Positions 3,123-61,400 are shown, numbered from the stretch's first letter. The stretch: 64,000 nt of DNA from Candidatus Omnitrophota bacterium (GCA_014729775.1 WJJJ01000021.1:24788-88787); one strand, 5' to 3'. Made by a program: numbers and translations. The notes: generated by a model not told the origin, from the letters alone.

Positions 3123-3488
3123 TTACCAGAATTTCTCTTTTATCTGCTCATCCCAGCGATGCAGAGTGTGCAGGAACCGTTTCTTTTTATGTTCTCTTTC
3201 GAACGGAGGAGCGAAAAAGAACGTGGCATTTACCGTACCTTCCACGCACTCCTTTACCGCGACCATCGTACCCACCGGAATCCCCACGATCGCTCCGGTT
3301 ACCGGGTCGTATTCCTCGGCGTAATGGCCCATGGCAAGCGGCACGTTGGCCCAGGAAACCGATGCGTCGCCGACGCCGTAGCTCAATTTTTCGGCCGGAT
3401 CATGGTAGGGATCATAGATCCCCCGGTCGGCATAAGCACAGGGAACGCATAAGGCGAGCAGAAAAACACACAACAACCCTTTTTTCAT
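3123..3488 (-). CDS. Small secreted protein (121 aa) with an N-terminal Sec signal peptide and unknown function
   Basis: MKKGLLCVFLLALCVPCAYA|D... The ATG at 3486-3488 is preceded by a strong SD (GAAAGGAGGGGGGAG). It is the 3' third of the long track ORF 3123..4148, whose upstream portion overlaps alr out of frame. Confidence 0.55.
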   Translation of the reverse strand: MKKGLLCVFLLALCVPCAYADRGIYDPYHDPAEKLSYGVGDASVSWANVPLAMGHYAEEYDPVTGAIVGIPVGTMVAVKECVEGTVNATFFFAPPFEREHKKKRFLHTLHRWDEQIKEKFW

Positions 3489-34427: not shown

Positions 34428-37400
34428 TCATCGTTTTCTTTTTCTGGATCTTCCGGACCTGCTTTTCCGCTTTTTCGCCGATAATGCCGGTTGATCCGGA
34501 CGGTCGCGTTGATGCCCTTTCTGCGCGGAAGAGAATCGCGCTCTCAGCGTCCGTTTCAAGAACAAACCGGCACAATACGCGCCGAAGAGTACCGCGCCTG
34601 TCTGCAGGACCAGAGCAAAGGTACTCTGAGGACGAACAGAGACGCCCAGACGTTCAAGCGCTCTGGCGACTTCTTCGCTGGCAGCGCCGTTATCCGGAGA
34701 ATAAAGGATCGCCTTCTCGTAATCGTTTCTGGATTTCTTTTTCTGACCGAGAGCGGCATAAGTCAGACTGCGATGAAAGTACAGCTGGGCATCTGCGGGC
34801 GCGATGGAAAGAGCTTGGTCAAACAGAGCAAGCGCGCGCCCGTAGTGTCCAAGCTCACGAAGGATAACAGCCCGGCACCGCAACCCTTCAAGTGAGCGCG
34901 CGTAAACGGTATCATATTCGCACGCCCGTTCATGATCAGCCAGCGCCGCTGGCAGGTCTTCCTCGACCAGATAATAGTAGCCGGCGCGAAGCACATAAGC
35001 CTGTGCTGAATAGGGATTCATCTCCAGCGCCTTATTGATATCGCTGATCGCCAGATCGTACCGCCCGGACTTACAGCGGACTTGAGCACGGTCAACCAGT
35101 ATCTGGTCATTAAGGGTGTCATGTTCAAGCGCGGCGTCGAAAAGCGCTATGGCCCGCTTGAAGGCGGACGGCCCTCCGTCCGCCAGGACCCGTTTCGCGT
35201 ATGACTGCAGACTCAGGCTCACCAGGGTCCTTTGACCCCCGAGACGAGCCATCCGGTAAAAACGCGCGAAGGGCGCATCATTACGCACCCGCAGATGATT
35301 TGCTTCCTGAAAAAAGAACTCCTCGAAATCAAAGTTCGCTTGAGCAACGCCGGTACCGGCCGCCGCATCGCAGTAGGAAAATCTTCGCGCTCCCTTTACG
35401 AGAACGGCGACATGGGAAATATCAAACGCCTCCTGATCGGCGCCGCCGGCCCTTCGCTGGGTATGTTCGTAGAGCTCTATTGGCACCGCTTTTATTTTAA
35501 GTGTTCGCAGAAGGTAATACAGCAAGATATTCATGCTTACACAATTACCGGTCTTCTCGAAGGCGAGCGCGCGCAGGCTGAACACACCAATGTCATAGCG
35601 GTATTTCTCCCTGATTGCTCCGGCGATCTCGCTGGCCGTCCTGAACACATCTTCTTCGACCCTATGCTGCCGTGACTGCGCCTGCCATATCCGCAGCATT
35701 GACCGGCCCTGCGCGTCTTTCCAGTCCGCCACGTCAGCCGCTATTCTCTCGGCCACTTCCCGGGGACGCCGGTCGCCGGCCGCCCGGCAATGCCAGTGAA
35801 TGCCGGCCTGCAGTGCCTGCGCCACAGATGTCTGCCCGTCACCCGCGGCAAAAGAAGACGGCGCCAACGCCAGCAGCGCCAACATTCCGGTTGTCGCCGA
35901 AAGGAAATACCTGCGCGAAGCCGTCTTCTCCCGCACACTGCCTCCCGGTGCTCCAGCGGGAGCGCGCATAGTTACGGGAGGGTGTACCGCCGAGGAAGCA
36001 GCAGGATTCACCTCGCAGTCGGCGGCCGGATAGACCATCATATAACGGTATCCCTGCAGTCGCAAAACCGATAATTCCCGAACCAGTGGCGTTCCGTGAT
36101 GTGAATCGATCACTTTCGCCTGCCAACGCCCGTTCCGGCATTTTAATCCCGGCACAAAATACGACTTATATGCCTGCGCAGCGATGAGCGCGGCATCTCC
36201 GTCCAGGACCGAACTGAACTGCTGCTGCCAAAACCGGTGATCGATCACCTCCCGTCCCAGAAGGATCTCCATTTTCCTCGGCCGGGCCAGCCGGCTCACC
36301 ACCGGCTGACTTATGCGGAGAAATCCATTCTCATCCAGGGTAAGATCACCCAATGCGTCCAACTCACACAGAATATCTTCTTCGGTTTCATTCCGGTATA
36401 CCTGCCGGTGCGGCAAAATCACCTGCCAGAAACTGAACGCGTGGATCAATGACCGCAGAAGACAGCCTTCAACCCGGGGATAATGGCTGTAAGGTTGGCC
36501 GGTGTACGTTTGTTTCGCCCATCCGTTGACCGGGGTGATATCATAATATTTTGTTTTGAAATCCACTGCCCCGGGAGCGCTTGCGGATTTCGATCCGCCT
36601 CCCTGTCCCTCTCGGAACAAATCTTTTCCCTGCGGGCGAAAGATGTGCGTGTCTTCCGGGAGACGAGTTTCTTTATTGAGATTTTGTTCGGACACACGCA
36701 CTATCCATTCGGGGATATCGGTTGTCACGTCTGTATCCGCCGCATTGATCCGCGGACGGCCTTGGAACAGAAAAGGCAAACGCAGCCCTGATACTAATTT
36801 TGGAGAAGCCGTGTACACCGTGCCGGCACACCCTTGCGCCGTGTACATAAATCCCTTCTGTAAGCGGATGACGGTACCCGGAGCAAGCACCTCCCGGCGG
36901 GAACGGCTCACCTGATAGGTATGATTTTCCAGATAGGTCACACTCACCGTATCCACCTGATTATACGTATGCGGATGCCGGATATTCAACGCGGGAGAAA
37001 CCGGTTCACTCAACCAGCGCGGGTCATCGGTCGAGAAAGGTTCCTGTTCGAAAGGGGTCACGTCCTCCGCGAAAAATTTACGGAATACATGAGCATTATG
37101 GATAAAAGGAGTGGATACCTTTACATTCCTGATACGCAGCATACGCGCCCATTTCACGATCCAGGACAACACGGCCTGACTGATCCCAAGATTAAGATAG
37201 CGGCGGTCCTGGGGAGTGCGCCAGACAGTACCGATAGGATAGTATTGCGTTATCTCCAGAGAACGATCAGCATACACCGCAGCCACTACCCGGCGCCGTC
37301 GTTCCGCTTCACCGTTAATCACGGTACGCGCGGTCAACGTCATCACCGGCCACTCAGAATTCCCGTACTTTGGAGTGGTCATGACAATTGACAAACCGAC

Positions 37401-40400
37401 TCCCGGACGCTCTCCCTCCGGTTCTACAAGAGGGATCTCATTATCCGTATCCGCCGGAGATGATGAAGCCTGATCCGTTACGGACCGCGGCGGGGCCTCT
37501 TGCCTTCTGACACGACGCAACCACGCATCAATCCAGTAGATCAGGATCCCCGACCAGAGAATTCCCATATTCGCAGCGATTAACACAATGTATTCAGGGA
37601 AAAACGCCCAGCCCAGAGACAGCCCGCTCGCCCAGAATACCCCGTTACCCGCGTAAAGACGGAGGAAATCCTTCACGGTTTCTTTAAATTCAATATCCGA
37701 CCGATCTTTCCGCACCAGATATTTATGGATGGCAAAATTCGCGGGCAGTCCCACTACCGCTGCGAAAAGCGTGATATCAAGAAACACCTTCCAGAACACG
37801 CCGGGAACAAACGCGGTAAGGAACCCGTACCATGCCCCGAATACGACTATTCCCACGTATAGTCCCCCGAACAGGCTCCAGCGGCCGATCGCCGGCCAGT
37901 CTATCCGTTCGCCCCTGACGGTCTGGTTCATGTACATACCGCACCCCCGGGACACCCCTCCGACCACCGTCTTGATCCCAAGCGCGGCATAAAACCCGGA
38001 CTGAACCGCCGCAATATACCAATGACCGAAAAAGACCGAAAGCAAAACCGCTACGGCCGGGATCCCGGCAAGCACCCCCCACCGGAGATAGCGGCGCATA
38101 CGCGCCGTGAACTGGGCCTGTCGAGTGAACTTCTCCTCGGCCGGACTCGAAACACTCCCGTTTCCACTGGAATGATGAGAATCGTTGACCTCCGCATTTC
38201 TCTCCCGCTGACGCTGCCGGGCACGATCCGTGATCGCCAGCGTCGCGCAGCGCTTAAGCAACGTCACGTCAGTGGCAAAACACAGTTCGGTACGATACCC
38301 GTTGCGCCCGTATAACAACCCGATAAGCCCGCCCTGCAGGTCGAACACCGGCGCTCCGCTAAATCCTTTTTCGGCCCCTTGCGCTTCGATAATCAGCATT
38401 GCCGTCGGTTCCACCCGCCGCGCCGTGCCCCGGATCAACTGGAAGTTGCGGTAATTCGCATGCGGCGCTCCCGGTATGACTACCGGTACCCCTTCATGCT
38501 GTGAGGCGATTGGAAACGTACGGCGGGAATAAGAGGCAAACCGCCGCAAAGGAGTAAAAACATTCTCGGGATAACTGGCTTTCCGTATCCGCAATAATCC
38601 TATGTCAGGATATTTCTGGCTGGCCGTGACTTCACCCCACAACCGCCCTCTGTCGTTTTTCACCAATAATCGAGAAAGTTCGGAATAAAGCACATGAGCG
38701 GCACTGGCAACATAGTAAAAATCGCTGTCTTCATCGAATATAAAACCCGTGCCTCCGCCGAACCATGTGGTCTCATCCTCTCCATGCGTATGTCTCACGA
38801 CAACAGGTTTGCGGACGACCACAAGATTCTCGGCGATGAGTCTCAGCCGTTCATCGGAAATATGATGAAGCTTTTGGGAACTATACGCGGACAATCTCTC
38901 ATAGAGAAAACCGTCGCCCCCCTGCCGACGGCCGCGGGTGCCGCGTTCCCTGCCCGCAGGAGAACCGGCCGCGGTGCCAAACTGTGCATTCGCCGGACGT
39001 CCGTTTGTCACCCGGTAAATATCGCACGTAGAGCAATAACTTACCATGCAATGGTACTTCTCCACCCCCATGACCGGATCCGGCACCGGTAACCCAAAAT
39101 GGTACCGGCCGCCGCTTCTCAATATCTCCTCTACTATATCCACAGGAACGCCGGAAACCGGATCACGCGCTACCTCTTCCCGATTCCACAATATCGCTAC
39201 GCCGCCGGGAAAAAGGAGATACGCAAGTCCCTTCGCCAAACGGCGCAACGAGATCTTGCCCACGTCGCCGTCCCAACATGACTCAAAGGTAGCGCCGCCC
39301 AACTTTCTCTCTTTCAAATATTCATAGACAAAAAACCGCAAATTTCGGCTTTCTGCCACAGCCTCCGGGATCTCGCCGGGCAGCACGTAAGGCATATTCC
39401 AGTTTACAGCGTCAAACCGCAATCCGGGAAACCGGGACTCGCCGTCCGGAGAAACGATATTGTCGGCGATCATCGCCTTGATCTCAAACCCGACGAGCTT
39501 CGCCGTATAGCGGGCGTTTGCGATCTCCATGGGATTGATACCGAGAGTATATTGTGTTTGTCCCGTTTTCAAATACATCAGCCAAAGCTCAAGCCCGGTC
39601 CCCGGACCGACCGTCAACACCCTGCTGCCGCGATGTATCCTTTTCTCCTCCCACAACATCCGATAATATTCCTGGTCCGCGTCGCTGTTTAACGACGGTG
39701 AATATACGGTGGGATATACGGGGGTAATAAGAGAATGCACCCGATCGGACTTTGCCTTATCAACGGCTCTGGTGTTCACCACCCACCCATTTCCGCCGAG
39801 CTGAAACAGACCATCCGTTTCCCACGCGCCGGTATCGCGGTCAATGCGGGCGACCACATACGGCAGCTGGCCATTACCCGGCCGTATCTCGCGGACCCCC
39901 TCCCGCAGCTTCGCGGTCGAGAAATCCTGAATAAATTCCGAATTACCCCGAGCTTCCTCCAGGAACGCTTCACAATGCTGAATTAAACCGGGATCATGAA
40001 GCTCCGGTATAGTAAAATAAAAATAACTCAGGTTCAGATATCTGGGATGTATTTCATCCAGTTTATCCATGCTTTGCAAAATATCCGAAGGAATCACCGG
40101 AAAAACCGCGACAAGCCGTCCTTGCTGATTATATAAAAGATCCACTTCTTCCAGAACGAATGCGTAAGGAACTACCAAAATATGCTTCAACACCTCTTGC
40201 CCCACACAGGCTCCCGCCGGCGAATCATGACTATCCGGCAGACGGACGCGCCGGTACCCGATCCCTTCGCGATGATGCGCCGCATTTCGCAACCCTAAGA
40301 AAAATAACAGGTCTGCCGCGACTGCCTCGCGAGCGGCGCTCTCCTGCGCACCGGATGAGTTGCGAAGATCGCTATCGGACTCCCCCGTTTCTCCCACATA

Positions 40401-43400
40401 ATACTCCTGACCGCAAAATCTTCGCTTAAACGGCGCGAATTTACTCATTCCTGCCGGCAGCAGACTCATTGATCCGAACCAAGGCGACCGATATGCGTGC
40501 CAGAGGCGGTAATTCTCCCGATTTGGTTTCAGCATCACCGCCCCGCTCTGTCCCCGTTTCCGGCGGCGCAGCACCACATTGAGACCCGGCCCGGATATCG
40601 ATACGTCTGTCACCTCGAACTGCTCCTCCAGCACGTCGAACGCCTTCGTGATTTTCAACCGGTTCCCGTCCAAATGATCGGCCCTCACCCCTCCGCGGAG
40701 GAACGTATACACCACACGCTCGACCGGCTCCTGCAGGGCATCCGCGACCGCGCGCACAAGACAATTCCTCCTAAGCTCAAACGGCACCCTTCCTGCTCCG
40801 CCGCGGGAAACGAGATACAATCCCGCTGAATACCGGATCTTTATGACAAAACGTCCCGTAGCGCGGCAGGCCGCGGCAAAAATTTGCCGTTCAGGCCTAT
40901 ATTCCTGAGGAACCGCGGCAATGCCCTGCTGAACCGCAATCGAGTATAACTGATGGAAAAACCCGCGATCGAACAATATCCTTTTTTGTTCGGCCTCGCG
41001 TAAAAGTTGCGCTAATTCCCGGGGATGATGAGAATAATATTCTTCACTGAAACAGCACGCCTTTTCATGTCCGGTACCAACCGCATAGCACGGACACACA
41101 CGGCCGGCCCCTGCCTCCCGGCGGCGCCTGTTTACCTCGCGATCCTGAGCAAGATGACGGAGCTCTAATTCTTCATGACGGTGCACATCGGCGAGTATTT
41201 CACTGCCGGGGTCCCTTCGAATCAATTCAAGCACTTGCCAGTGCACGGTGAAGAGAAGCCGTTTCACACTGTAATCAATCGAAACAAGCGGCGCGTATTT
41301 GTAAGGAACTACCCGCACCTCAATCGCTTCCGCCGGGGGCGCGTGGGGAAGAAGTCCTTCCAATAATTCTTTCACATATTCCTTGGCAAAATACCTGCCG
41401 AAAAACTGCCCTGGCAATGCTCCTTGAACACGGAAATCGCGGCGATCACTGTTTTTCGCGAATGTGACCGGCGGCTTCAAACTCCGCTTCCCGGCACACG
41501 CGGCGTAACAAATTCGTCCCGCGCGGGAAAAAGGCTCTCTTTCTGTGAGGGGACTGGAGCCGCCCCGGTGACGGAAAAGATCAGTGAACTGAAGGGTAGT
41601 GAGCTGATGCGGACGCTTTCCAAAATATTCGTATCCGGCGCTCTCCAGCACATAGCTATTTCGCGCAGTCCGGAAATGAGGAAGGCCCAACCGGCTCTTC
41701 GCGTGTGACCGCAGCACATATACCATCCCTCTGAGGTTATAAAACCGGTTTCCCCTGTCGGGAATATCAGAAGAAATGCTCACTGCGCCTGCCCCGCTTA
41801 TGGAAACAAACACATTACTTAACATTACGCCGTATGCGGCAAGGCCGCCGTACACGCCGTAATGAATCGCGCCGATATACACCGGCCGGTTCTCCCGCGG
41901 CATGATCTGCGTGACCCCGTCCTCGAGAGTACAAGTCTGGAACGCGATTCGGTCCGACAACTGCCGCGTACGCGGATGATGCGCGATATACCCGGAAACC
42001 GGCAGCCGATCCACGCCAACAAGATTACCGTTCAAAAATTCAAGCAGATTGGTTCTCCCACTGGATAACGCATCGGCAAAAAACCCCTCCACGTCGGGAC
42101 ACACGGGGCTGCGCAAAGTGAACATATCTTCCTTATCTTCCCGGTATGCTCCCGGAAACATAGATGAATGCCCGCAGCGCCGGAAAAAATTCGAAATCAA
42201 ATACTCAGTATGAAAAAACCTTGTTCGCGACCACGAATCTGGGTGAAGCGGATAAAACCGTTCCCGGCTCAAATAATTTTCCGCGGCCGCGATGATTTCC
42301 CGTCTGAGCGGGATATCCTGATTTTTTATTCTCATCAAAACCTGCAACGCGCTTCTCCGCACTCGAGCAGAAAACGGCCGCCTGGTGGCCGACAGCAGCG
42401 CTCTGATTACTTCCGGATTCATCCGGTCCTCATCACTTAAAGAAGTTAAAGCCATCCACACTTGATGAGAATGGCCCGGAACCGGATCCGTCAAAATTCG
42501 CACTGCTTTATGTTCGGGAACACGTCCATCCCGGGGAATAGCGCTGTCCGGATATATGGGACCGGGAGAGGAGCTGGTTCCGCTCTCTGACGATACCCGT
42601 TCAGGATTCAATCCTTTGCTTTCCGCGATCTCTCTCAAGGCCGACTCCGCCGGGCCCTTAATCTGGCGAATGCGTTCTCTGGTAACTCCAACTCTTTCTC
42701 CCGCCGCCTGCAGCGTCAGCACTTCTGCATCCTCCCCGATCGCAACCCGGATACGACTGATTACAGATAACTCGCATACCTGCAAATCACGCTCGGGATC
42801 CTTCCGGTTCCGGAATATCTCGCGCAAACGCGCCCGCAGCTCTTTAATAATCTCCCGGCCTAAGGCGTGGACACCCCGAACCTCTTCCTCAGTATCGGGT
42901 TTCGCCTCAAGGTCTTGCAGGACGGTATGACGGTCATCGAAATCCTGCCCTCCCCCGGGCTGATCCAATGAAACCGCGCCTCTGTGCCGGACCAGGTAAC
43001 TGTCGATTTGCTGCACAGGCACCCCGGTTACCTCGGAAATCTCTGCCGGGGACAACAGCCCGGTGGAAAGCTCTATATTATGCTCCCGGCACAGGTTTCT
43101 TAGTTTCCTGTCTTTTTCCTGCTGAGACGTAGGAGTCCGTACTATATGTTTCTGTCCCTGGATTTCCCGGGTAATCACTTGGCGGATCCACCAGCTCGCA
43201 TAGGTCGAAAATTTGTATCCGGTTTGGAATTCATAACGCGGAATTGCTCGGTATAAACCGATATTCCCCACACTGATCAATTCCATCAACGTAAACGGAT
43301 GACGAAGATACTTTTTTGCAAATTTTACTACGAGGCGGAGATTGGAATTCCATGCCTCGGTATGAGACTGCCTGTTCACCCGGCGTTCCTCGGTCCTGTT

Positions 43401-46400
43401 CGGCACAAAACTGCGCTGATACCAGGAAATGACCCGTTTCACTTCATGTAGCGGCATATCCGCAGCCTGAGCGACACGTTCATACGGGAACGGCCGCTGC
43501 GAAAGTTTCACTCTTTCTTCTTTGCACGCTTGTAATACCGCTTCATCCTGTTCTGCAAACCGAGCGCGCATCGAGAAAAACCCCTCTCCTAACCTGGTCA
43601 GCAAAGGAATCTGCGCAATCTTTTCCAAATACAGTTTCACATCCGATTCAAATCCTGAGGAATCTCCGGATACCGCCCGCGTCGCCTGCTCAGATACGGG
43701 ATGGAACAAATATTCAGGAGAAACCTCCATTTCAAAAAATGCCCGGCCGGCGCAATATACCTGTTCCTCGTATGGACCGCGATAATCAAGGAATTTAGCC
43801 GCTTCAAGAGCGCACGTCAGGGCCGCATCGTAATCCTCTTCGATCACAAGAAGCTGGGCCAAATGCGACCTCCGCCACATGCACATCGGATCACGGGCAC
43901 GCGAACGCATCGCCGAGGCAAACGTGTGTTCCGCGTCCGCGGTATGAGTATCCAGACGGAGCAGGTGTCTGCCGATCCAATCGGCATTTTTCGTCTGGTA
44001 AGGACTCCTTTTCTGCGGGATCGCGTACACGCGGGTATGCTGGCCCCCGATCGATCCGGAACAAAGCAGATGCGCTTTATCCAATGCTTCTAAATCATCA
44101 GCGACAGCCGCGCGCGATATCCGCGGGGCAAATTTCGCGGCAACTTCGGAAATAGTCACCCATTTCATTCCATCGGTTTTTTTTCCGATGAGCCGCTGCG
44201 CTTCTTTATACACGCGGGCTCTGCGTGCATAAATAGCGGGAAGGCGCGGCTTTTTCTTCTTGCCCGGGTATTCTGAACCGGCAGGAGAACTTCCGCCGGT
44301 ACGCCCAGAATTGAAATCCGCATCCGTTATTCTTGTACCTTCTTTGCTAATTGGGCTAAAACGTTCTGAAGTCTCCAGTGAGACTTCCGTACGCACTCGT
44401 GATCTTCCCTGCACACGCTCGTTGTGATAACGGATCCTGCCGTTATAATCCCCCACGATGACATGCCACGCCTCATTCGTCCCTAATCCGGTACCTGCCG
44501 CTCTCCCGCCGGTATCTATGCGTTTAGTAGTATTCAGATTAAAAATAGCCTGCCGCCCGGTGCGAGGATCCTGCGCAAGAAGATCTGCGCTGATAGGCTC
44601 TCCGTAATTGACAATGTCGATCACCATAGACGGAGAATCTTTTACGGAGAAGGCACGCACTTCAACTCCAGGTGCACCGGGATACGTATGCTGGCGCGCG
44701 TTGACGATCAGATTGTATAACGCGCTCATAAGCGATCTGCGCCGCCCCAGGACATACCTGTAAAAAATCTTATATCCGATCATGAAATTCACCTCTTTGA
44801 AATACGCCTTCAGGTCGGTGATAAGCTCTCCTATCGAAATCCATTCCGTATATTCGTCCGAACAATCTACATCGGCAATACCGCACCCGATTTTTGCCCG
44901 CGCTTCCGCCAGGGCCACGATTGCCTTATCCAAGCCATCTCGCGGCTCTCCCCGCACGGTATCCCTTAAGGAGAATACACGTTGATAATAATATTTGAAC
45001 ACGCCGTCAGCGCGTTTAAGTGCGCGGAGAAACCACTCGGGGTGCCGTTCCTGCAGTAAACATAAACGGGAAGCCCATCCCCCGACCGCGCATACCGATT
45101 CGACATCTCTTTTTAAACGGGACAACGTCACAGTAATATTCCCCAACTCCCGCGAGATACCCGGGAATTCATGCGCCACTCTGGATAAATACATTTCCGC
45201 GCCGGAAACCCCTTGCGCAAAATCCCATAACGCCGCACCGTGAGTTTGCCGGCGAAGGACAACTCCGGTCCGCTCAATTCTGACGGTGGATGCATCGGCC
45301 GGCGCGCGCAGGTCAAAGAAGCACCCGCCGTTTCTGGTCACCGCCTGCTGCTTCCTGCGGAGAAGGTCCGCAGGCTCTCCGGCCGCGTGGATATACACCA
45401 GCCGCTCTGCGCATTCGCCCGCCTCCTTATCGATACGCAGGGGTGAATTCCGGCCGGCGAACGATCTCTGCCTTTCTCTCCGTTTCGACACATATGCCGA
45501 GTACGTGCGGGTGCTGTACCATTCCTCAAATGCCGGAGCGATCCCGGTCGACGCCAGCACGTAATAAAACTGCTCCGGAAGATACAGGACGATATCCACC
45601 GAGCTCAAGAACCCTTCCATCCGTCTCGCGAATTCATTCAACGCTCTCATAATTCCGATTTTCCTTTTCTCTCCGAACCGCTCGGCTCCTCGTGCGTCAA
45701 AAATAATAATCGGTTCGACAGTAGGAGATGAAACCTTCCTGAAGACCTTTACGTCTCCCCCCAGCCAAAGGGTAAGGCCAAACCCCATCGCCTCGAATAT
45801 CCTCCGGCAGGCACGCAGGTTCTCGTACGCCCGGCCGGGCATAAGCTCACTCAACACGTCTCTGTAGCGGTTTGCCAGCAGCACATCACATTCCGCAAGA
45901 TCGAATCTGGTAATAAACTCCAGATCTTCATCGTCGGACATGTCCGGGTCGGTATGTTCTATCACGACAATCGTATCGTCTACGCCGACGATCCTGTCAA
46001 GATATCTCTGCAGCGCTCCTTCAAAATCAAAGTTTTCCATGATCGTATCGGCATCGTCTTTGTAGAAGAATTCGGCGTTTTTCAACAAGTGGAAACGGGG
46101 ACGCGCGAAAAGCAGAGAGAACATATCTACGGTATCCGCGATCACTCCCGTCTCGTTAAAATCGCGGATATGCGCTTCCGTATGGAGATTTCTCCGTATC
46201 GCGTCTTTATCAAGCATATCGGATGGAGTAAACCCGTAATGAGGAAGCATACGATCTAATACAAATCGCGTACTCGGTCCGCACCCCTCTATCTCAATCC
46301 CGGATACCTGCTCCCAGATAAACTGATCCGGCCCGTTACAGACGGAGATCACCTTCCCTTCCTCCGGTTCCGGAAAAGCGCCGATACGGATAAGCAGTTT

Positions 46401-49400
46401 GATCAAAAGACGATAGGCATTGGCCATATGTACCGCCTTCGGATACTCTGATCCATCCTGATCGCGCGGCATAAAAGAGAGTTCTTTTATCTTTTCCGTC
46501 ATTTCGACGACGTTCACAAACTGCTCAACAAGACTCGCCGGAGACACAGAGTACGGGCCCAAGGAAACTGCATCTGTCTTCTTTTCTGCGTTCGCCGGAA
46601 CGGCCAGCACTGCCAGTGTTCCCATGCCGGGTGAGCTGGCCTCTTTGTATGGCAATAAATACTCTTCCGATGTATTACGGTCTAAAAATGAGGTTAATCT
46701 CTTTTTCTCCGACTGCCATTTTCCTTTTAATAACTTCCCAAATCGACTAGTCTTAGTTGTTTTGGGAAGCTTTATATCTGTAGAAAGCTCGAAATACTCA
46801 ATGGCATTTTCAGGATGCACGACCAGCGGGGGCAACCCGGCCCTCACCAACAGAAAGCTCACCACCAGAGCGCCCGTTCTATGGTTCCCTTCAATCAGCA
46901 ACTGCGGCGGACTTAAAATCCGCAGGTACACTCCCGCCGCTCTTTTTCGCGCGTTTTTTTTCTTGCGGTTCATATATTCCGCTACCGGCACACCGGCAGA
47001 GAACACCTTCTGTTGCGTGGCTTGTACAAATTTATGCTCCTGCATCTGCAGTCTCCCATCGTTCCCAAAATGACAAAGCAAATTAAGTTTCAAGACATCA
47101 TTCAAATCCAATTTTCTTTTTTTGAGAAGCAACTCATTCACATACTCGTACCCGGCTATTAACCTATACATGACTTCGTCAGTGAAATCATCGCGCTGCG
47201 ACGAAAGCTGCCGGTTGATCGCGGGAAACCCTTTTTGCAATTCTGAAAAAGAATTTCGTACAGCGGGTATGTCAATGACATATACCGGTAAAGGAGCCGG
47301 GGAACTGCTTGGTCTATCCCGGGAACTTTGATCCAGTATCATCTGCCGCAAATGCCTGGCCCATTCGTTACCATGCCGATTGATATGGCGCTGTAACGCT
47401 TCGAGCACCTCCGCTTCGTGCGATTTGGCGATATCCATAAGCGCCCAGCTTGCACAGTCACTTCGATGAGGAGGCGGATATCCCACTGCCCAGGCCAACG
47501 CACCTATCGCTTCGGTACCCATGGTGATCAGCTCCCGTTTTATGTCCAACCGCTCCGACCAGGAAGAATTGTCCAATTTATCCAACAACCTTTCTGCTTT
47601 CCAAGCGTTCTCCTCGACCGGAGATCCGGAAAAACCAGAACGCAGCAGCTCCGAAAGAACCGTTTCATGCGCGCACACGATATCCTCATGCCCAAACCGT
47701 TCCAGCACGAACTCCCGGCCGGCCCGTCCCATTATTCCCGCGCGGCACGGCGACCGCAGCAGCATTTTGAGCGCCCGCGCCAGCGATCCGACGTCCGCCC
47801 GGCTGAAAAACCGGTTCCGCCGGCGGTTCACCTCCACAAGCAGCCCGGTTTCATCCGGCACAAACGCTTCCAGGTTTCCTCCTTCACCGGTAGCCACCAC
47901 CGGTGTTTCCATGGCCTGCGCCTCAAGCAGAACCCCGGAAATCCCTTCATTAAACACCGTGGGGAACGCGACAATGGACGCTACTTCAAAATATTCCCGC
48001 ATCTTTCTGCGAGAACTGACTGGCTCATCGATCCGCACTTCATGACGTAAGTCATTTACTTCCATGTATTTGAGTATTTCATTCAGGTATCCGGGACGGT
48101 ACGAATCACCCAGAAGGATCACTTGAAAGCGGAATCCGCAATAGCGCAACAACCGTGCGGCCTTTACCAATTCCAACGCGCCTTTGGTCGGCACGATCCG
48201 GCTGGGTGCAAGGATCACCGGATCGCCGTTTAATTGCAGACGGGCACGGATCGCCGGCCTTTTCTCCGGCCCAGGGACAAACACGCGTAAATCCCGCAAG
48301 CACGGAATATGCACCGCGTCCCTGCCGTATTTCAGGCGCGCGTCCTCGACGCCTCTTCGGGACACGGTAATCAACACATCGGCCGTCGCCGCCAGTTCAT
48401 CGAGATTCCGTTGAGGATTACTTCCGTGGGCGATCAGCTCCCCCTCATGCCACTGGACGAGCACCGGGATCTGCCGGGAACGGGCAATGCGGGCGATTTC
48501 CACCGCATACGTGCTTTTAGGACTGTGTACGCGCACAGCATCCACGCCAGGCCGGCCCGGCTCACCCATGATATTGGCAGCACGCGCAATCAATTCATCT
48601 CTATTCCACTGCATAAACTGGCGGTATGGATGGTGCACAATATGCGCGTCCGCGACGCGTTCGGTAAAGTCACAAACGGAATCACCCCGCGGCACCTCAT
48701 ACAGAACGTGAGTGCGAAGACCCGGATTGCGCTCGGCAAGCGCGTGATTCAATACATTCAGATGTACAGCCTGACCCGTAGGGCTCATGTAATGGTTGGT
48801 CATCATCAGAATACGTTTCCCGGAAAGCGCGGAGACTAATGCCTGGCGCGATACATTCGGAGAAGAAGCGGATTGGAACAAAGATTCAGCGCGAACCACA
48901 GGCTCCAGGGTACGTTGTCTCACCCGCTCAATTTCTTCAGAACCAAGATCGCGATGAGTAAACGCAAGGTACTCGGCCATGTCCATGCGGTAACGGCTCA
49001 TAAAGTCGCTTGCCGAGTATCGGCCGTAATCGCTGAGCGCATCAGCGTGAAAATCCGGATCACCAAAATAATACTCTGCCTGCAGGTACCGTTTCGGCTC
49101 GTTCCCGGGCCTTTTGATCATATCAAGCACCCGGCGGGCATTCTCCTGCCAGGAAGATATCATAAACAGGTCTAAATGCGTAACCTTATGTTCGGGCAAC
49201 TCAATAAACAAACGCCAGGCTGAGGGCGTGAGCTGAATCAATTTACCCGGCCTGAAAAGAACTCCCGACCTCTCCAATAGTTCGAGCATTATCGATAAAA
49301 ATAGTTCCGCATCCGGCATCGACTCTGCGGCAAGGCCCGGGTATCCCGAAAGACCGGCTCGCTCATCCACCAGTATAACATCGATATCACTTCCCAATCG

Positions 49401-52400: not shown

Positions 52401-55400
52401 TAACCCCGCCCCCTTGTTCATGTACTTTATCGCCACCCGGATGGACTCGGTCATAAAAATAGGGGTATCGCTGCGAAAAGATAAGCGCCGCTGTGCTGGA
52501 TCGTATACCCCGCGGTAAAGAAAAGGAACCGAATCCTGCTCTTCCCCGTAATAAGTATTGAGCCGGCCGGAAAGAGCCCAGCATATCATCTGATGATATC
52601 CCGTCTGCAAAGCGTGATATCTGCTGTTCCAAAGCGGACGTATCTGATTGAGCTCCTGATAATCAGCACCCATAGTGGAAAGCACCTGCGCTATCTCTCC
52701 GGCATCACGGTTCCAGCGGTAAAAATATTGCATTACATAATTGAGCACTGCCGCGGTATTCGTATATTCTAAGCGGCTTATCAATCCGAATATCTCTAAC
52801 CGGCTCACCTCCCGCTGGAACGAGATTCCCAGCTGTTTTTCCCGCCCCCGGGACCACCGGCCGAATGCGTCTTCCTCTCCGGTTTGACCCTGGACGGCAG
52901 GCGAGCTGGACTGAAGTCTTTTTTTCTCGCTTGTAACCAGCTGCCTCCAGTACCTCGCCGGCGGCGCATGCTCAAAAAACCATGCCTCGGTAAGCACCCC
53001 GGGCTTCATCGGAAGTCCGGGACAATACCACACCTTGTCGCGCCGGCTCCAGCGGCTCTCCTGCCGCGGATTCTTGTAGATCACTTCTTCGCCGCCCTGC
53101 GCGATGCGGAATAAATGCGCTTTATGAAAACTGGTATGCAATCCTTCTCCCGCACTGCCCCCAATACCGATATTGACAAACGGCCGCAGCGCTTCTTCGA
53201 TAGAATAACGGTTGTCCGAAATATTCTTAAATCCCCCGCCGTTATCGAACGAAACAATGATCATCCGTCTATTCTCCTCTGAAACCGGCTCGACGAAACT
53301 CAAGTAAATCCCGTATTCGTTTACATGCTGATACAAATTCTCCAGGTTGCATTGGACAAAGCCTTGCGCGGTATCCCACGCCCCGAGTACCGAAGCGACA
53401 CCGCCATAGGTATCGTCGTCTTCGTAGCGAAACACCGCGTCGAACACATCCCTGCCCGCCCGGGAAGAGCCCAGTTTCATTCCTCGTTTCGAATAGACGA
53501 AGACCGATCTCCATCCTATCTCACGCAAACCGCGCATCGCCTTCTTGTAGGCGCGGATATTTACTTCAGGCGCGCCGGGCATAAATTGATGCGCGGCATC
53601 AAGCAGATTTCTGGACTGCGCATGGACAGCTCCTAACGGGCTGGACACCTGACTCACCCAGTACGAACCCCGGGCGGATCCGTGACCGGCAAGGTGTCCG
53701 TTATTGTCAGAAGCATACGAGCAACAGACATGGGGAAAAACTTCAAGTGCGAAGTGGTCCTTGAGCATACATATTGCCCCGCCCACGCACCCGGCTTTAT
53801 CGGACCACTCGGGTATAACCCGGCCGGAATCGCCAAACCCGGCCGTTTCTCCTCCTATGGAAACCGACCGTATTCCTAAATCTCTGAAGCCATCTATAAC
53901 CGGCTGCCAAAATTTTCGGCACTCCGCGAGTCCTCGAGACGGAAAGCGCTGCCGCTTCACCGCCGGAAGCGGAACGTCTTCGAAGGAATCAATATCCACA
54001 ATGACCGCCCGGGTTTTTATTCCGGACACTGCCGCGTAACTGCCCCCCAGCACAAACAGGACTCCAAAAGATTCCTCAAGCGCGTGAATCGTGTTCTCCA
54101 CGTATTTTTCCGCATGCGCGACTGCCGGACGATATTTCCACCGGCCGGATTTACGATCTAAATGCCACCGCCCTGCGTACCATCCCAATATATGCACGTA
54201 GAGAGAAACCCTTCCCCCCGCCTGCCTGATCAGCGACTCGAGTTTTTGCCGATGCGCACCGGTAGCGGCGTACCAGGGAACTCCCCGTTTCGAAAGAACC
54301 TCTTTTTTATCCGGATCCGGGAACGAATATCCTCCGCCGATCAAAGAATAATCCATTCCCGCCGGGCTTGATCCCGTGAAATCATCGACACGGGTAGTTT
54401 CCGTGATAAGTTCATCCAACAGGGCTCGGTCGTTCCCTTCCCTCTGCATCTCATCTGCCGCGCGCGATTGATAGTACGCAAATAACGACATCATCTTCCG
54501 CGCCGTATGGTACCCGGGAGAATCACTTCCTCCGGCGCTTTTGCGGACAGTGACCATATAATCTTCGAGTAAAATGCGGAACATAATACACAATGAAAAT
54601 ATGTCATCCGCCAACAGACAGAGACGGGAAGTCGCGGTAAAATCGTCCCCGCAGCGGGAAATCCTGTCTCCGCTGGTGAACAAGCGCTTGTAGAGACGGC
54701 GCCTCGCGCGGGCGACCGGATCTTGTGCACCAATCTTCGTCGTTGTATCATTATCAAAATACACGATCCGGGAATCTCCGGCTCCTCTTCCCTCACACAC
54801 GGACACGTCAAAAAATGAAATATCGCCCTGAATATACCCGTTTTGTGCATAAAGCGCACGATAGGAGGAAAACACGTCCAGAACGATCAACCCAATATTT
54901 TTCGCCGCGGCAATCCCGGAACCCAGCGGGTGAATCGAACGGGTGAAATAATCGACCAGCAATTCTCCATTTAATAATTCGAACACAAGCCCTGTACCAA
55001 ACCGGTCCGCGGACGAAAACTTCACCCGGCCGAAGTACCGGGGAAGGTGGTGCAATGAATCGTTGGCCGGATTAAGCTCAGAAAATATATTCTCCTGGGG
55101 CAAAAGCAGAGAATCCTGAACCGTTTTGCGCACGTCTGCTTCCACCTGCGGATCGGGAAGCTTACACACATAATGAGCCCCGGGGACTAATACTCCGTCC
55201 GCCGCTCCTTGGTATTTTGCTCTTACCACCGCTTTCCCATTTATTCGGCGAAATGTATCCTCCACCGCGAAATCCCGTTCTAACGTATAGAGACGAACCG
55301 GGCTGGAACCGCCGCTCCTCATCTCTTCTCTCAGCCGAGTGAATGCGGATACATGATCCAGATAGTTCTGGGTGTTGCTTTGGCCTTCACGGACCTTCGC

Positions 55401-58400
55401 GCGGAAAAAATCACCAAACGTACGGTATCCCGCCATACCGGCCAAGCCGTCAACGATCTCCATAAAAGGTATTATTCTGAAATACCCCTCCATCTCGTCG
55501 AACACCGCACAGAGCTCCCGGGCATACGTAAGAGACACATCGAGCACCCGGCCGGCATCCCTGCCCCGGTATTCCAGGCTGAATCCTGATTCCACCTTGT
55601 ATTTTCTAAGAACATCCACAACGCGGTTCACCAACGCTTCAACGCTTCGAAAATGATGATTTTCAGCCAGGAACGGATACTCCTGCTTTTTAAGATCAAC
55701 CTGCAGCGGTAAGCTGTTTATTGCCTGGAGACCGTCGGAAAAGAAATGGATCGTGAGCGCAAAAAACGCCGTCCACAGTAATGATTCACTCCGCGTTCCC
55801 CGGGTAAGCAGCTGCGGAGCGTGCGCGATAATTTCTTCTTTCTGGAATTGATCAAAAATCCCGGGGGCACCGACCGCACCCGTTTCGTCAAACAAGTTAT
55901 CCGCGATTTGTGTGATTTCATCGTGAACGGGAGAAGATACTGAAAGATCTTGGGAACTGCGCTTGACCTCCTGCAGATCACGAATTACCGCTCCCATATC
56001 CGGATACCGTTGTTGGCGCGGTTGAAGACAGCGCAAGGCAATAGCGTACGCCGCGCCAAAATTCTCGTCCGCGAGCTGCTCCTGCCGCTGCAGGGCGGCC
56101 CGGATCCGCAGCAAGGCGGCAACCGCGTTGTCCCGCATCATATATTCCAATATCTCCCGCGGCTCCAGAATGACGGCCAGCACCATCCCGAAACTGTACA
56201 CATCCCACTGCTCCGTAAACAGCCGGGTTGAAGCTTCTAACGCGCCGGTGCGTTTCGCTTCACGACGACCGAAGGCCCAAGGTTCATAGCTCTCGCAATA
56301 AATATCGGTATGGATGGTGCGCACGATTTCCGGAATGCGGCCGGAATTTTCCACCCAGTCGTAACGCAGCGGTACCGCGCTGTCCTGATCCACAAGGCAC
56401 ACCGTTTCCCGCAAATTTTCATCAAGCCGCATCCGGATATTTGTCGGTTTTAATTCCTTCACCAGAAGCCCCCGGCGGTGACACTTTTCTACCGCATCCG
56501 CGACCGCCAGCGCGAGCCGCAATTTATGCCTCTCATCACGAGCCAATTGAGGCACCCATCTTTCCATCGCCAGCAAATCGCCCAAATTCACGGAAGGAAC
56601 AAAATCCATGATCAGATACGGGAATTCCCTCCGCCAAAAACGGGGCGCGAGAATTTGTCCTCCTTTTAACTTACACCATCCCTTCCCGTAATAATGCGGG
56701 ATCACGCTCTCTTCGGTCAGAGTTTCGTAATGCCGGGACAGCCATATCACGTAATTAATAATCCGTCTGCGTTCTCTCAAAGAAAGCACATCATTCCGCG
56801 GTCCGTTACAATACACTTTCACCGCGTAGGGCCCATGCGCTTTATCTTTCGCGCTGACTTTATATACACGGGCGTAACTCCCTGCACCTACTATTTCCTG
56901 GGTACGCTGATCAAGGTCGTTCATTGTAACTCGCGGGCTGCCCGCATTATCTGATACGGGAGAGGACCCGCTCAGACGTCCAAGGCGCCGGACCGTATTA
57001 TCAAATATATGACCGATATGTAGGGTGAGCCCGGGGATCTTTAGTTCTTCCTGCACTTTTTCAACCGCCCGTTGTTTGGCTGTTTGCACCGCATGGGGAT
57101 CAAGCCTCTGTATCACAAACGCCTCTTTCAAATACCCGGGCACGATGGTCCTGAGAGTAAATAACTGTTCTATCTCAAGCTGACGCAGCGTCCTTTCATT
57201 CTGTATCTCCTCTTCCCATATCACACCTAACGGAAAATCAGATAATAGAGACACCACCACCGACCGCACACCGCCGTAAGCCCCAAACATCTTGATTGCG
57301 CCCTCTCTGTGAGAATCCCATTGCGCGTATTCCTCCAATACGCCTGCCGTATCTGCATGTATCACCGCTCGGATGCCGGCAGCATCTGTCCTGTACCGAG
57401 GGCTCATCACGATCGCCCCCCTTACTCGCGGGGTCTCTTGTAACACCGCATCAATAAAGCGTTCCAGAACACCTGAATCATCTTCGGTCAGCAATGACGG
57501 GATATCTTTCCTTGAAAAAACGCGCGGCCGGGCGTACTGAACCGTCTCCTTTCCGGACATCAGCGCGCTTTTCTTTTTGGAAAAAAACAGTGCGCGGATA
57601 TGCAAAGGTGCCGCGTACGCGCTGCTCATGTGGCCGCGCTCATGAAGTAATGTATCCAACCGCGGGTAATGACCTATGCCGCGAATGACAATCACGTAAT
57701 CTCCGGGATACGCACCAAGATAGGTATCAATGTCGTCCGCCAACGCTTCGTCTCTCAATCGAAGCGCATCCTGGTTTTGCCATCCGGAAAGGTGCCGTTT
57801 CCAAAAATTCACCGCTTCCATATCATCTAAATCGATTTCTCTTTCTTTAAGAAGCGTCAGCAGATTGCGCAGCTGACCCAACGTAAGCGCCAGATCCGGA
57901 GCTTCCTCCTCGATACGGATAGTACGCCCGCGTGAGATCTGTGCCCACAGATACCGGTTACGGGCAAGCGCGTAAGGAGTAAACGAGTATACCGGTTCTT
58001 CGCGGGGCCGTTCTTCGGCGTTGAGCACCTCACGCAGACCCTGCAGATGATTTGAGGTCTCCCGGTCGATGACCGCCATAATGTTTCGGGCAACCTGCTC
58101 ATCTACGGTATCTTGTCGATCCAGTTGGCGCAGGGCTTCTCTGAATAGTGCGGCGTCAAGCTTCTCTACATAGGTATATCCCCATTCAAGGAAAAACGCC
58201 ACCCGCCGTTTTTCTCGTTCCGCACGCGCAAGTACCGTTTCGGCCGCGGAGACCCTGAGGTCAAAGTCAAATCCCTGGGCATGATACCCGTAAAGAGAAA
58301 ACACCCGTGTCTGTCCGGTGATCGAACTTCTAAACCGTGCAAGCATCGGGTCGGCGGCCGGTCCATTGTGTGAAAGCACCGCATCTTCGCCGAATACATC

Positions 58401-61400
58401 CGCGGGAAAGAATCCGCTCATCATCCCGCTCAACATCAAAGATACGAATACTCGCCTGTCCGTTGACACCGCTGAAGATGCCCGGAAAGGAAAATATGGC
58501 CGCGGTTTGGTATATACCGGCTGCAGCAGGCGAGACGGCCCCACCAGCCACGGAGAGGTAACCGCACTCAGTCCGTGCTGCAACCGGTGAAAATATTCTA
58601 ATAAAGGCGAGCTGCTTTGCGGAGCATCGCCATCGCGTAAATTTTTTATTTCTTGCCGTAACGCTCTTAATTCGTCGGCGATATCATCAAAGACCTCTTC
58701 CGCCTGACGCTCACCGCTGTCCAGCGCGATGAACAATTCTTCTAGCGCATCTATACGACCCTGCAGGAAACTCGCGCTTCTTTCCGGAATACGCGGCGAC
58801 ACCGCGGACCGGGTGTGTATCTCATTTTCCCGTTGCGCTAACTGAGCGGAGAGGCCGGCGAGCCGGACTCCCTCAGCCTTGATATCCCGGGCGCGTTCTT
58901 CGAGTTTTCTCTGTTCAGCGGCAAGCGTCCGCTCGCGCAAAGATAATACGTCTTCCTGCCGCTTACGCCCCGCCGCCCAGTCGGCGCGCGTCTGTTCAAT
59001 CTGTCTCTTACGCGCGTCCAATGCCGCCTGTTGTTCAGCCAGGACACGGCGGTCTGAATCAATCCTGCCGCGCTCTTCTTGAATCCACTCACCTGCCTGT
59101 TCCTGTTCGTCCTCAAACCGCCCCCGGGCGGTCTCCAGCCTTGCCTTTTGACGCTGAAGTATCCGTTCCCAGCGTGATAGTCTTATTTCCTTGCTTTCCG
59201 CTTCCTGTTTCCTCCCGGCTAATTTTTGTTCCCGGACGGCTACGGCACGTTCTTTCTCATCGAGTTTTCGCTGTTGACGCGTGAAACGCTGTTCCCATTC
59301 TCTCAGAGATGCGTCCTTTTCCTCCTGTTCCTGCCGCGCCTGTAGTTTCTGCTCATCCAATCGTTCCTGTTCCTGGGCGATATTTCGCCGCTGCTGCGCG
59401 CACTGTTCTTGGATCTTCTTCAGCTCGGCACGGGCTCTGTCGATCTTTTCCCGCAGCCGGACAAGTTCACGTTCAGCCTCATCGGCCTCTCTTACACGCT
59501 CACCCATCTCCCGACGCTGACGTTCAAGGATCTGCTGTTGCCGCGCGAGGTCCGCTTCCCGCCGCGTGAGCTCTTCTTCCCGCACAGCGATCTGTTCCCG
59601 GGCTTCATCGACGGACTGTTGCTGGTATTTGGTCAGTGCGCACTGCGCACGCATCCAGAACATTCGCAGACGAACTACGCCTTTTTGGAATACCGGTTTT
59701 ACCCGGGAGGGCCGCTGCCGCGCCCGCAGTGCAGCCCGACGTTGTTTTTTCTTCTCTTTTCTGTTCCGTTTTCGCGCCGCTCGCCTCTGCTCCCGTAACC
59801 CGCCCCTCTGCCGCAGAGACGGCGCATCATTACTTTCTTCTTCGGTATCCGGTACGATCTCGGCACGCCGGTTCCAAAACAGCCCGTATGAGAGAATGAT
59901 GACCGCTGCCGAAGCAAACACCCGCAGGACGATGGAATACCCGGCCTCATCATAAGCCGGATTGATCCCTACATAATACGTAATGAACACCACCGCCGAT
60001 CCGGCCAACGCGGCGATCCAAAAAGGATGAGGCCATCCGGGAGCATGCACGGAGGGAACTTCATCCCGGTTGCCTTTCTCCCCGGATCTGCGCGGACGGG
60101 CCGGGGAAGATACCGGCATGCCCGACATATCAGGACCCGCTTCATTCCTCCCGCTCGGCCCGGAGATTGCCGCCGACGACGAAGATTGTGCCGTCAGTAA
60201 ATGCCGGTAGTCATCCAATTCCGAAAAGGGAAGCACTCCCGGGATTTCCTCAACCGGTGTCATCGCGCAATCCATCCACCCCATCATAAGGCTCAGGTAG
60301 CGGAGAGAAATATCCCGAGAAAGAAGGGTGTAGTGTTCTTTTTTCAATCCCAGTAAAAGCAGCGTTTCATACGGTTTTTTCTTGTGGGGGAACACAAAGA
60401 AATCACGCTCGACGACAGGGCGGGCGGCATTGGTGAGATTGTAGCGGCGCTCATGGGCAGAAACATCAACTATTTCAACCCCTTGTTCCTCAAGAAACCG
60501 CCTGTATTCGGCATTTTTTTGCGCTTCGAGCTCTCCCCGGTAGAGAGGATCGGAGAGAATCGCCGGCTTCATATTCTGCCGGACATGAGCCGGCACGTAC
60601 AGCAGCACTCCATCGATATGCCCGTTTTCGACAAGGAATTCATACGGGTACGAGTCCCCTTCAAAAGAAACGGGCACCTGCGCGCTTATCCAGCCCGCGG
60701 GGAACCGGTATGTCTCAAGACGCTCATATCCTTCTTTGGTTCTCAAATAAGAACGCAGCTGATTCACCGCTTCCGCTGATACTGAATCGGAAAAAATGAC
60801 AAACGGCGTCAGCCCTACCCCTGAAACGGCTGCGCCTTCCGCAATGAGATCTTCTTCAGGGGACGAATCCTGCGCGCCGGAACGGAACCGGGACACTCCC
60901 GTAAGATAACGGTACGGACGTTGCGGAATGAGCGGAAGCCATAACCGGGAATCTTTAAACCATACAGTCCGGTCTTCCCACGGCAGATGTAATGAGAAAA
61001 CGTGACGGGGATGTCCGCTCACCGAGAGACGGGAAACAAAACGTGAAACACCGTCCAGTTCACTGTTAATGTCCCTTGCGCCTAAATCAAGGAAACTTCC
61101 CGAAAAATCGACCGCTTTTGAAGCGAGTTTACCCGGCACAAAGTGCTTCTGCCCGGAGCCGGAAAAATACTCAAGAACTCCTTCTGTGCGCCACCGGCCG
61201 CTTTCCTCCCCCATTATCCGCGAGGCGCGCCGGGTACCCGCAGGAGTCTGGAGTTCGCGCACAAACTCGGCGACCCCGCGCATCTGCTGTGCCAGATATA
61301 TTTCCCGCTCTCCTAATCCCGCGAGGATCTCTTCGTCAGAAGGAGCCGCCCTGCCCTGATGACGACGCACCTGCGCCCTTGCGAACGCATCCTCCGCTTC

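Follow-up and report, generated by a model that had tools for sequence, protein, structure and literature searches.

A sigma factor buried inside a giant protein raises the question of whether it is still a working sigma factor and, if so, how it could come to serve RNA polymerase. Sigma factors are usually described as free-standing proteins, held in check by anti-sigma factors or, in rare cases, activated by loss of a short pro-peptide. The case considered here comes from a 64,000-nucleotide stretch of Candidatus Omnitrophota DNA (GCA_014729775.1 WJJJ01000021.1:24788-88787; hereafter the window, numbered from its first letter). A giant open reading frame (ORF) at 34428-63998 on the minus strand, the sole stop-free frame there, runs for 9,856 codons without a stop. 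It crosses the right window edge, where our residue numbering starts, so 9,856 amino acids (aa) is a lower bound on its length. The original prediction held that a sigma-70 module with regions 1.2, 2, 3 and 4 is embedded in this giant, and our analysis confirmed it: positions 42624-43646 of the minus strand, to which all coordinates within the giant refer below, translate without stops and lie in frame at ORF residues 6785-7125.

The module is a real, full-length factor of the sigma-70 family, primary-like (group 1/2) and not of the extracytoplasmic function (ECF) type. In Pfam searches with the module alone, Sigma70_r2 scored 61.3 bits against a cutoff of 24 (E 7.8e-17), and Sigma70_r4 scored 26.0 bits against a cutoff of 24.1, over profile positions 19-49 of 50 only. 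Sigma70_r3 lay just under its cutoff (24.6 versus 25.3 bits) and Sigma70_r1_2 further below (14.9 versus 22 bits). The NCBIfam RpoD/SigA subfamily model TIGR02997 aligned end to end, with module residues 3-338 matching model positions 3-298 of 298 (E 3.2e-48), and this alignment bears out the predicted primary-like class with regions 3 and 1.2 sub-cutoff in Pfam. NCBIfam models ranked RpoD-type first, followed by RpoS/SigB, RpoH, SigB/F/G and FliA, and we therefore regard the module as primary-like rather than ECF. SigA, RpoD and RpoS chains in the PDB matched it over sigma2-sigma4 with E values of 1e-31 to 1e-24 (best 1.7e-31). An AlphaFold2 model of the 573-aa segment around it gave block-mean confidence scores (predicted local distance difference test, pLDDT) mostly of 80-96 over sigma2, sigma3 and sigma4, and a Foldseek search with this model returned SigA, RpoD and RpoS of holoenzyme structures.

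Residue comparison, numbered on E. coli sigma-70 (a sequence whose length of 613 was checked and which agrees with the PDB alignment ranges), revealed identity at the -10 and melting positions Y425, F427, Y430, W433, W434, R436, Q437, T440 and R441 and at the -35 positions R584, E585, R586, R588 and Q589. Residues 419 and 421 are swapped in the module (F419Y and Y421F). A check by hidden Markov models and recognition residues, set out beforehand, thus found regions 2 and 4 above cutoff and the checked -10 and -35 residues intact.

The module forms part of a larger unit of 573 aa (aa 6570-7142; 42573-44291) with the tripeptide Ser-Ser-Pro (SSP) at each border. From N- to C-terminus this unit comprises a basic stretch, a winged helix, a helical domain and sigma regions 1.2, 2, 3 and 4. 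The opening SSP, located by motif scan in the context GRTGG-SSP-AGS (aa 6570-6572; 44283-44291), is followed by the basic stretch (AGSEYPGKKKKPRLP; 44238-44282), which is partly conserved. The winged-helix domain (aa 6588-6659; 44022-44237) occupies the place of region 1.1, was modelled by AlphaFold2 at block-mean pLDDT 76-94 and is conserved in the homologues P0259 and P0277 described below. Assignment of this domain to a specific family was rejected, as it returned only generic Fur/MarR-type winged-helix matches in the PDB (E >=3.6e-3), and no Sigma70_r1_1 match was found by Pfam in either the module or the ORF. The helical domain that follows (aa 6666-6755; 43734-44003) carries an LDY(R/Q)G...AG..FF motif and belongs to no known family, as judged from Pfam, the alignment of three homologues and AlphaFold2.

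Within the sigma part, region 1.2 (SDVKLYLEKIAQIPLLTRLGEG; 43581-43646) is sub-cutoff in Pfam, as noted above, is covered by TIGR02997 from model position 3, and has a motif conserved in all three homologues. A stretch of ~60 aa between regions 1.2 and 2.1 (43377-43556) is largely missing from P0259 and P0277. Sigma domain 2 (regions 2.1-2.4; 43149-43352), responsible for core binding, melting and -10 recognition, is identified by the Sigma70_r2 score and the residue check, and domain 3 (regions 3.0-3.1; 42975-43148) by the near-cutoff Sigma70_r3 score and confidently modelled helices. The region 3.2 linker (42891-42974) is predicted to be disordered, with pLDDT below 50 at unit residues 440-463. 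Domain 4 (regions 4.1-4.2; 42618-42890), identified by the Sigma70_r4 score, contains a VTRERIRQI recognition helix and has helices modelled at block-mean pLDDT 80-90. The closing SSP (SGTS-SSP-GPI, aa 7143-7145; 42564-42572) stands 18 aa past region 4.2, approximately where free-standing sigma factors end, and AlphaFold2 predicted both ends of the unit to be disordered. Separate expression of the unit was considered and rejected, since the coding strand shows neither a promoter-like site nor an in-frame start preceded by a Shine-Dalgarno sequence where the unit begins.

Does this unit occur elsewhere? An exhaustive HMMER search with aa 5585-6784 revealed two proteins possessing the domain N-terminal to sigma, both of which continue into sigma. 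The first, P0259 (5,131 aa), clusters with a longer protein, P0391 (7,587 aa); here the unit is C-terminal and shares 35% identity over 545 colinear residues. In P0391 it begins directly after a junction of a different sequence, SLDNGG, with the same basic stretch that comes after SSP in the window giant, and this stretch likewise directly follows the junction in P0259. The second, P0277, is recorded as Omnitrophota and named 'sigma-70 family RNA polymerase sigma factor, partial' by NCBI; its 990 aa fill a contig of 2,974 bp, indicating a fragment of a longer ORF. In both P0259 and P0277, colinearity with the window unit extends from the winged helix through region 4.2. A three-way alignment is conserved from the basic N-terminus onward through every later part, including LYL..I...P.LT.LGE in region 1.2, KFSTYA.WWI.Q in region 2, SRE.IRQI in region 4.2 and a QQ motif in region 3.0 specific to this family of sigma units. 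Judged by this alignment, the sigma unit as a whole has been conserved as a cassette, which is found again in further giant ORFs of Omnitrophota.

Other searches gave a narrower picture. With the sigma module as query, a word-indexed search yielded free-standing RpoD-like proteins only and missed P0259 and P0277, probably because ordinary sigma factors filled the candidate list, and the joined sequence of the sigma-flanking modules had no word-indexed relatives, such that the exhaustive HMMER search was required. A search for loci of the sigma unit found none in genome contigs and, in metagenome contigs, no more than two sigma genes of ordinary type (35% identity), one of which (L002) lies within a 794-aa ORF of normal size. 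A phage or plasmid origin was rejected, as those collections hold only ordinary sigma factors at 28-35% identity that cover the sigma part alone.

Recurrence bears directly on the possibility that misassembly or a lost stop codon fused a free-standing sigma gene to its neighbours. The source is a metagenome-assembled genome and no identical copy of the giant turned up in the protein collection, which would fit such an artefact. Against it stand the 9,856 codons without a stop, the in-frame flanking of the unit by a motif used 21 further times in the ORF, and the presence of the same unit within long ORFs of independent NCBI and JGI assemblies. We give this explanation a vanishingly small chance.

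The flanking motif itself proved informative. SSP occurs 23 times in the giant ORF versus 2.2 expected, and none of 2,000 shuffles had more than 8; the other ORFs of the window hold only 2 in 11,155 aa. The usual context is [G/S/V]-S-S-P-[A/V/L]. A repeat at the DNA level was rejected: SSP codons vary between sites, and the motif is therefore kept at the peptide level. Together with four GSP/DSP variants, SSP divides the giant ORF (34428-63998) into ~28 modules of ~50-1,000 aa each.

Relatives of the giant show the same pattern. SSP is enriched in two syntenic relatives, L085 (14 versus 0.72 expected in the last 2,943 aa) and L086 (10 versus 0.41 in 1,904 aa), and in the OppA-linked relative L083 (7 versus 0.71 in the last 3,179 aa). 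Other giants use other motifs: DNGG, within SLDNGG, in P0259 (14 versus 0.05 expected), ASLG in P0308 (9 versus 0.3) and P0329 (7 versus 0.21), ELR in P0244 (23 versus 4.1), and DGG in P0312 and P0347 (5 each versus ~0.3). By these counts, junction motifs mark module boundaries and are specific to a protein or clade, with close relatives sharing SSP despite different modules. The giants P0265 and P0266 likewise have boundary motifs of their own, and motifs of this kind are candidate cleavage sites. In L083 (1-9541, encoding the C-terminal 3,179 aa of a 4,662-aa protein) a second motif, NHGMSQ(G), occurs seven times, sometimes as SSPGENHGMS, which suggests that this protein repeats a longer linker. 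As a separate observation, a borderline M23 peptidase module (27.2 bits versus 28.7) lies directly upstream of the sigma unit in P0259 (aa ~4270-4585) and at the equivalent place in P0391. M23 peptidases include enzymes that cut Gly-Gly, and the occurrence of such a module in a giant whose junction ends in Gly-Gly may be due to chance or may reveal a cognate protease.

Twin-arginine signal motifs (RRxF[LIV]K with a hydrophobic stretch) directly follow SLDNGG in P0391 (SLDNGG-RAKSSILGNIDRRDFLK, aa ~6415-6460) and ASLG in P0329 (ASLG-MDRRDFIK, aa ~1770-1800) and P0378 (ASLG-MDRRTFVK, aa ~3445-3475), a Met being present in two of them. The window giant also contains, by motif reading, an internal Met with a twin-arginine-like signal segment (MRAPAG...SRRYFLSATTGMLALLALAPSSFAA; SRRYFLS...AAPSSFAA) at 35844-35969. 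Twin-arginine signals normally act at an N-terminus only, and their position after junctions is therefore the strongest indirect argument that modules are cut apart.

Our preferred reading, which we advance tentatively and rate at slightly below an even balance, is that the unit is a functional, divergent alternative sigma factor made within a polyprotein-like precursor, released at SSP junctions and serving the core polymerase of the same cell. The giant would be cut at SSP junctions by an endoprotease, whose gene may lie elsewhere in the genome, and a sigma factor of ~63 kDa would be freed. The freed protein would bind core RNA polymerase and read -35/-10 promoters near the housekeeping type, with the winged helix standing in for region 1.1 and perhaps providing an extra contact to DNA or a partner. 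Sigma output would in this way be coupled to production of the giant protein. Release is made more plausible by the SSP on both sides of the unit, by the clade-specific junctions elsewhere and by the post-junction twin-arginine signals; furthermore, one module of the giant also exists as a free-standing protein of 210-250 aa, so modules look like whole proteins.

Several observations weigh against this reading, the first group of which concerns the divergence of the sigma module. Its identity to any RpoD is 30-39%, the best of 7,721 sigma hits reaching 36-39% in local alignments, and it missed every RpoD/SigA cutoff (TIGR02997, 164.5 versus 384.5; NF004208, 136 versus 555; TIGR02393, 134 versus 354). 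In an alignment of 83 primary-like sigma factors, 80 columns are near-invariant (>=90% conserved); the module differs at 24 of them and keeps 56 (70%), while the ordinary factors average 97%, the lowest of them keeping 84% (n=83). By family score, region 1.1 and near-invariant positions alike, the module is not a housekeeping RpoD/SigA (group 1) factor. The earlier description of regions 2 and 4 as matching the housekeeping consensus almost residue for residue consequently holds in regions 2.3/2.4 and in the recognition helix of 4.2, but not for the module overall. Specific changes affect the region 2.2 core interface (D403E, Q406S and E407V) and the extended -10 position in region 3.0 (H455S), and region 4.1 is divergent with a small insertion, the Pfam r4 match being partial. 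Bacillus SigE and SigK carry similar residues at the positions of Q406S and E407V.

The same divergence would suit a decoy or repurposed module, in which the sigma fold is kept for binding DNA or polymerase with no initiation, maybe as a competitor of the housekeeping sigma factor. Retention of only 70% of the near-invariant positions, the changes at Q406 and E407, the divergent region 4.1 and scores far under the family cutoffs all agree with this view. What speaks for a functional factor instead is that every checked melting and recognition residue is kept in the window unit, most of them also in homologues only 35% identical, which implies that purifying selection has acted on precisely these functions; the unit also has region 3.2 and sigma4. 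On balance, we judge a decoy improbable.

The remaining points against release concern the junctions and the sigma's likely targets. The junction motif could be a linker signature or a phosphorylation or glycosylation site; with Ser-Pro in the motif and a Pkinase module in the giant, junction phosphorylation is an alternative to cleavage. We infer cleavage from the motifs, no protease being tied to SSP. The original prediction had looked to an S1 protease and a transglutaminase-like protease in the same protein. The former is indeed present (38151-38966; Trypsin_2, 46.6 bits), with His/Asp/Ser candidates in AAHV, DIGLL and GFSGAP that make a plausible catalytic set by sequence reading. The transglutaminase-like domain is weak (17.2 bits versus a Pfam cutoff of 23), and this part, behind a signal-like segment, probably lies outside the cytoplasm. 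Moreover, L083 has SSP junctions with no trypsin domain among the Pfam hits recorded for its giant, so the embedded S1 protease is not clearly the processing enzyme. Proteolytic release as such thus gains plausibility from the SSP junctions, the other junction motifs and the twin-arginine signals, while the argument from the S1 and transglutaminase-like modules is weak. Finally, near-housekeeping promoter specificity gives a released sigma no obvious separate regulon.

Membrane topology frames a further alternative. As predicted, the giant has hydrophobic segments of membrane-spanning length: a transmembrane hairpin at aa 1327-1374 (59877-60020) and a multi-pass membrane module at aa 8640-8823 (37530-38081), each basic on both flanks. 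The Lys/Arg-rich flanks of both elements face the intervening stretch, and hydropathy and charge, read by the positive-inside rule, therefore predict a cytoplasmic location for aa 1375-8639, the stretch that contains the sigma unit. Following the hairpin (58614-60110, aa 1297-1795), we noted a very basic stretch and then an Arg/Glu/Gln-rich stretch of a few hundred residues, coiled-coil-like by reading, which may be a spacer from the membrane to the cytoplasmic modules.

With anchors at either side of the unit in one continuous ORF, the sigma could stay in the membrane-anchored giant and hold core polymerase at the cytoplasmic face, either localising transcription beside the other enzyme modules or sequestering polymerase. 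The disordered ends of the unit mean that a tether need not hinder polymerase binding, and the main class of long Omnitrophota proteins has been described as membrane-anchored with cytoplasmic domains (Nielsen & Lui 2026, 10.64898/2026.06.07.730766). A uniform, clade-specific junction motif is hard to square with a pure spacer, however; post-junction twin-arginine signals in related giants favour processing, and the unit of P0391 sits at the end of that protein, not within it. We consider a permanently tethered sigma fairly unlikely.

The cytoplasmic placement also argues against the earlier suggestion that the sigma is delivered to another cell. Under that proposal the giant would be a multi-effector toxin of predatory or episymbiotic Omnitrophota, and the sigma would take over the RNA polymerase of the prey. 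Omnitrophota giants have been linked to predation in the literature; Fic-like (GNHRTGA, by reading), kinase, protease and glycosyltransferase modules are kinds also found in effectors, and module content differs among relatives at the syntenic locus. Yet beyond the predicted location of the sigma stretch, Pfam scans of the visible ORF revealed no RTX, secretion or translocation domain, related giants carry ordinary metabolic enzymes, and a housekeeping-like promoter specificity offers no obvious reprogramming of prey. Taken together, these points leave an exported effector very improbable.

Returning to the polyprotein-like precursor, a wider form of this reading, which we hold as a working idea somewhat less likely than not, is that some Omnitrophota giants are true bacterial polyproteins, in which complete proteins (enzymes, exported proteins retaining their own twin-arginine signals and a sigma factor) are joined by clade-specific cleavage motifs, and that the released winged-helix sigma would drive a programme tied to the giant gene.

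Most modules of the window giant have no domain recognisable in Pfam scans. Those recognised are alpha-amylase-like, protein kinase, GT1, HATPase_c, sigma, Trypsin_2, transglutaminase-like and TPR domains. The immediate upstream neighbour of the sigma unit is a histidine-kinase-like ATPase module (44292-45731; HATPase_c, 25.0 bits versus a cutoff of 26.4) homologous to P0245 and P0289. An anti-sigma role for this module was rejected, with HATPase_c_2 reaching an E value of only 0.093. The kinase module lies within 53646-57000 and scores 32.0 bits against the Pkinase cutoff of 31.7. The Fic-like module (46638-47306, aa 5565-5787) was identified by our own reading of its GNHRTGA motif; Pfam made no Fic call, the best match being DUF7663 (E 0.0023). 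In the exhaustive HMMER search this module (aa 5575-5781) drew most of the 237 matches at E <=0.001, which include both free-standing proteins of 210-250 aa and modules embedded in many giants. By sequence reading, the Fic-like module begins shortly after a junction in most of these giants.

The rest of the window consists of core housekeeping genes (clpC, mcsB, ilvE, lolCD, lysS, an opp operon, radA, mlaDEF, ispDF, cysS, metG and lptFG), and no second sigma gene was found elsewhere in it. Omnitrophota origin is supported by the neighbouring ClpC, 81% identical to that of an Omnitrophota metagenome-assembled genome, the next best matches also being Omnitrophota, and by the OppA encoded beside the giant gene, which matches at 100% identity a protein recorded by NCBI as 'Candidatus Omnitrophica bacterium'. 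Several Omnitrophota genomes have a giant gene upstream of oppA (products of 4,662 aa and 7,846 aa). In L085 (Ga0117905_1000212) and L086, giants precede an opp-lysS-lolCD-ilvE-mcsB gene run that the window shares; in L083 (CP070807.1, a complete genome) a giant stands upstream of an oppA homologue with different genes downstream. These three giants share almost no module content with the window giant and almost no sequence with each other, and modules in related giants are ordinary metabolic enzymes. Based on these comparisons, the site upstream of oppA looks like a hypervariable locus for giant genes. In L084 the equivalent position is taken not by a giant but by several orphan genes coding for 600-1,600 aa.

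How does the window unit relate to known systems? It shares with group 1/2 sigma-70 factors (RpoD/SigA, RpoS and the cyanobacterial group 2) the region order 1.2-2-3-4, the folds and the checked recognition residues. It differs from them in its low identity, in scores far under the cutoffs, in the changes at Q406, E407 and H455, in having a winged-helix and a helical domain instead of region 1.1, and in being embedded in more than 9,856 aa rather than free-standing. Bacillus pro-sigma-E and pro-sigma-K are inactive, membrane-associated precursors activated by proteolysis; these group 3 sigma factors have pro-peptides of ~20-27 aa that are cut by SpoIIGA or SpoIVFB. The proposed logic, an inactive membrane-associated sigma freed by a protease, would be the same. 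In contrast, the window sigma is flanked by thousands of residues on both sides, and its cleavage is deduced from the junctions.

MARTX toxins and viral polyproteins likewise string arrays of modules into one polypeptide, with strain-variable sets and release at short inter-module sites. The likeness to the window giant consists in the module array and variable content, and processing comparable to theirs would have to be supposed here. RTX repeats and the C80 cysteine protease domain, which mark MARTX toxins, had no Pfam match in the visible ORF, and, unlike these systems, the window host is cellular and the giant gene stands among core chromosomal genes. The second-best NCBIfam match, MzaA of the MZA anti-phage system (NF041931), is a model of 726 positions with a C-terminal primary-like sigma part. 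The match reached 143 bits versus a cutoff of 800 and covered only model positions 470-702, the shared sigma part; no MZA partner genes were found in the window.

The closest setting is the 'multi-enzyme cluster' class, described among the very long proteins of Omnitrophota as membrane-anchored and cytoplasmic (Nielsen & Lui 2026, 10.64898/2026.06.07.730766). The window giant shares with such proteins (10.64898/2026.06.07.730766; 10.1101/2023.11.21.568195) the phylum, the many unrelated enzyme domains and a content that varies between genomes; it likewise has membrane segments, no signal peptide in its visible part and a bulk predicted to be cytoplasmic. Its visible 9,856 aa fall just under the 10,000-aa bin of Nielsen & Lui 2026 (10.64898/2026.06.07.730766). 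The main texts of that study (with one supplement) and of West-Roberts et al. 2023 (10.1101/2023.11.21.568195) make no mention of a sigma factor or junction motifs, and the latter states that the cleavage points of giant proteins are unknown. Our literature searches found no description of the junction motifs in work on giant Omnitrophota proteins, and no publication on a sigma factor in Omnitrophota giants or on bacterial polyproteins of this type.

Overall, the sigma itself belongs to a known family, and its context is very unusual and recurrent. A primary-like sigma factor inside a protein of ~1 MDa, recurring as a cassette, would represent a new mode of making or controlling sigma. The junction motifs predict concretely where giant proteins might be cut, turning the question of one protein or many into a testable one. 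If the polyprotein reading is true, these Omnitrophota would possess a mode of gene expression and sigma regulation undescribed in cellular prokaryotes.

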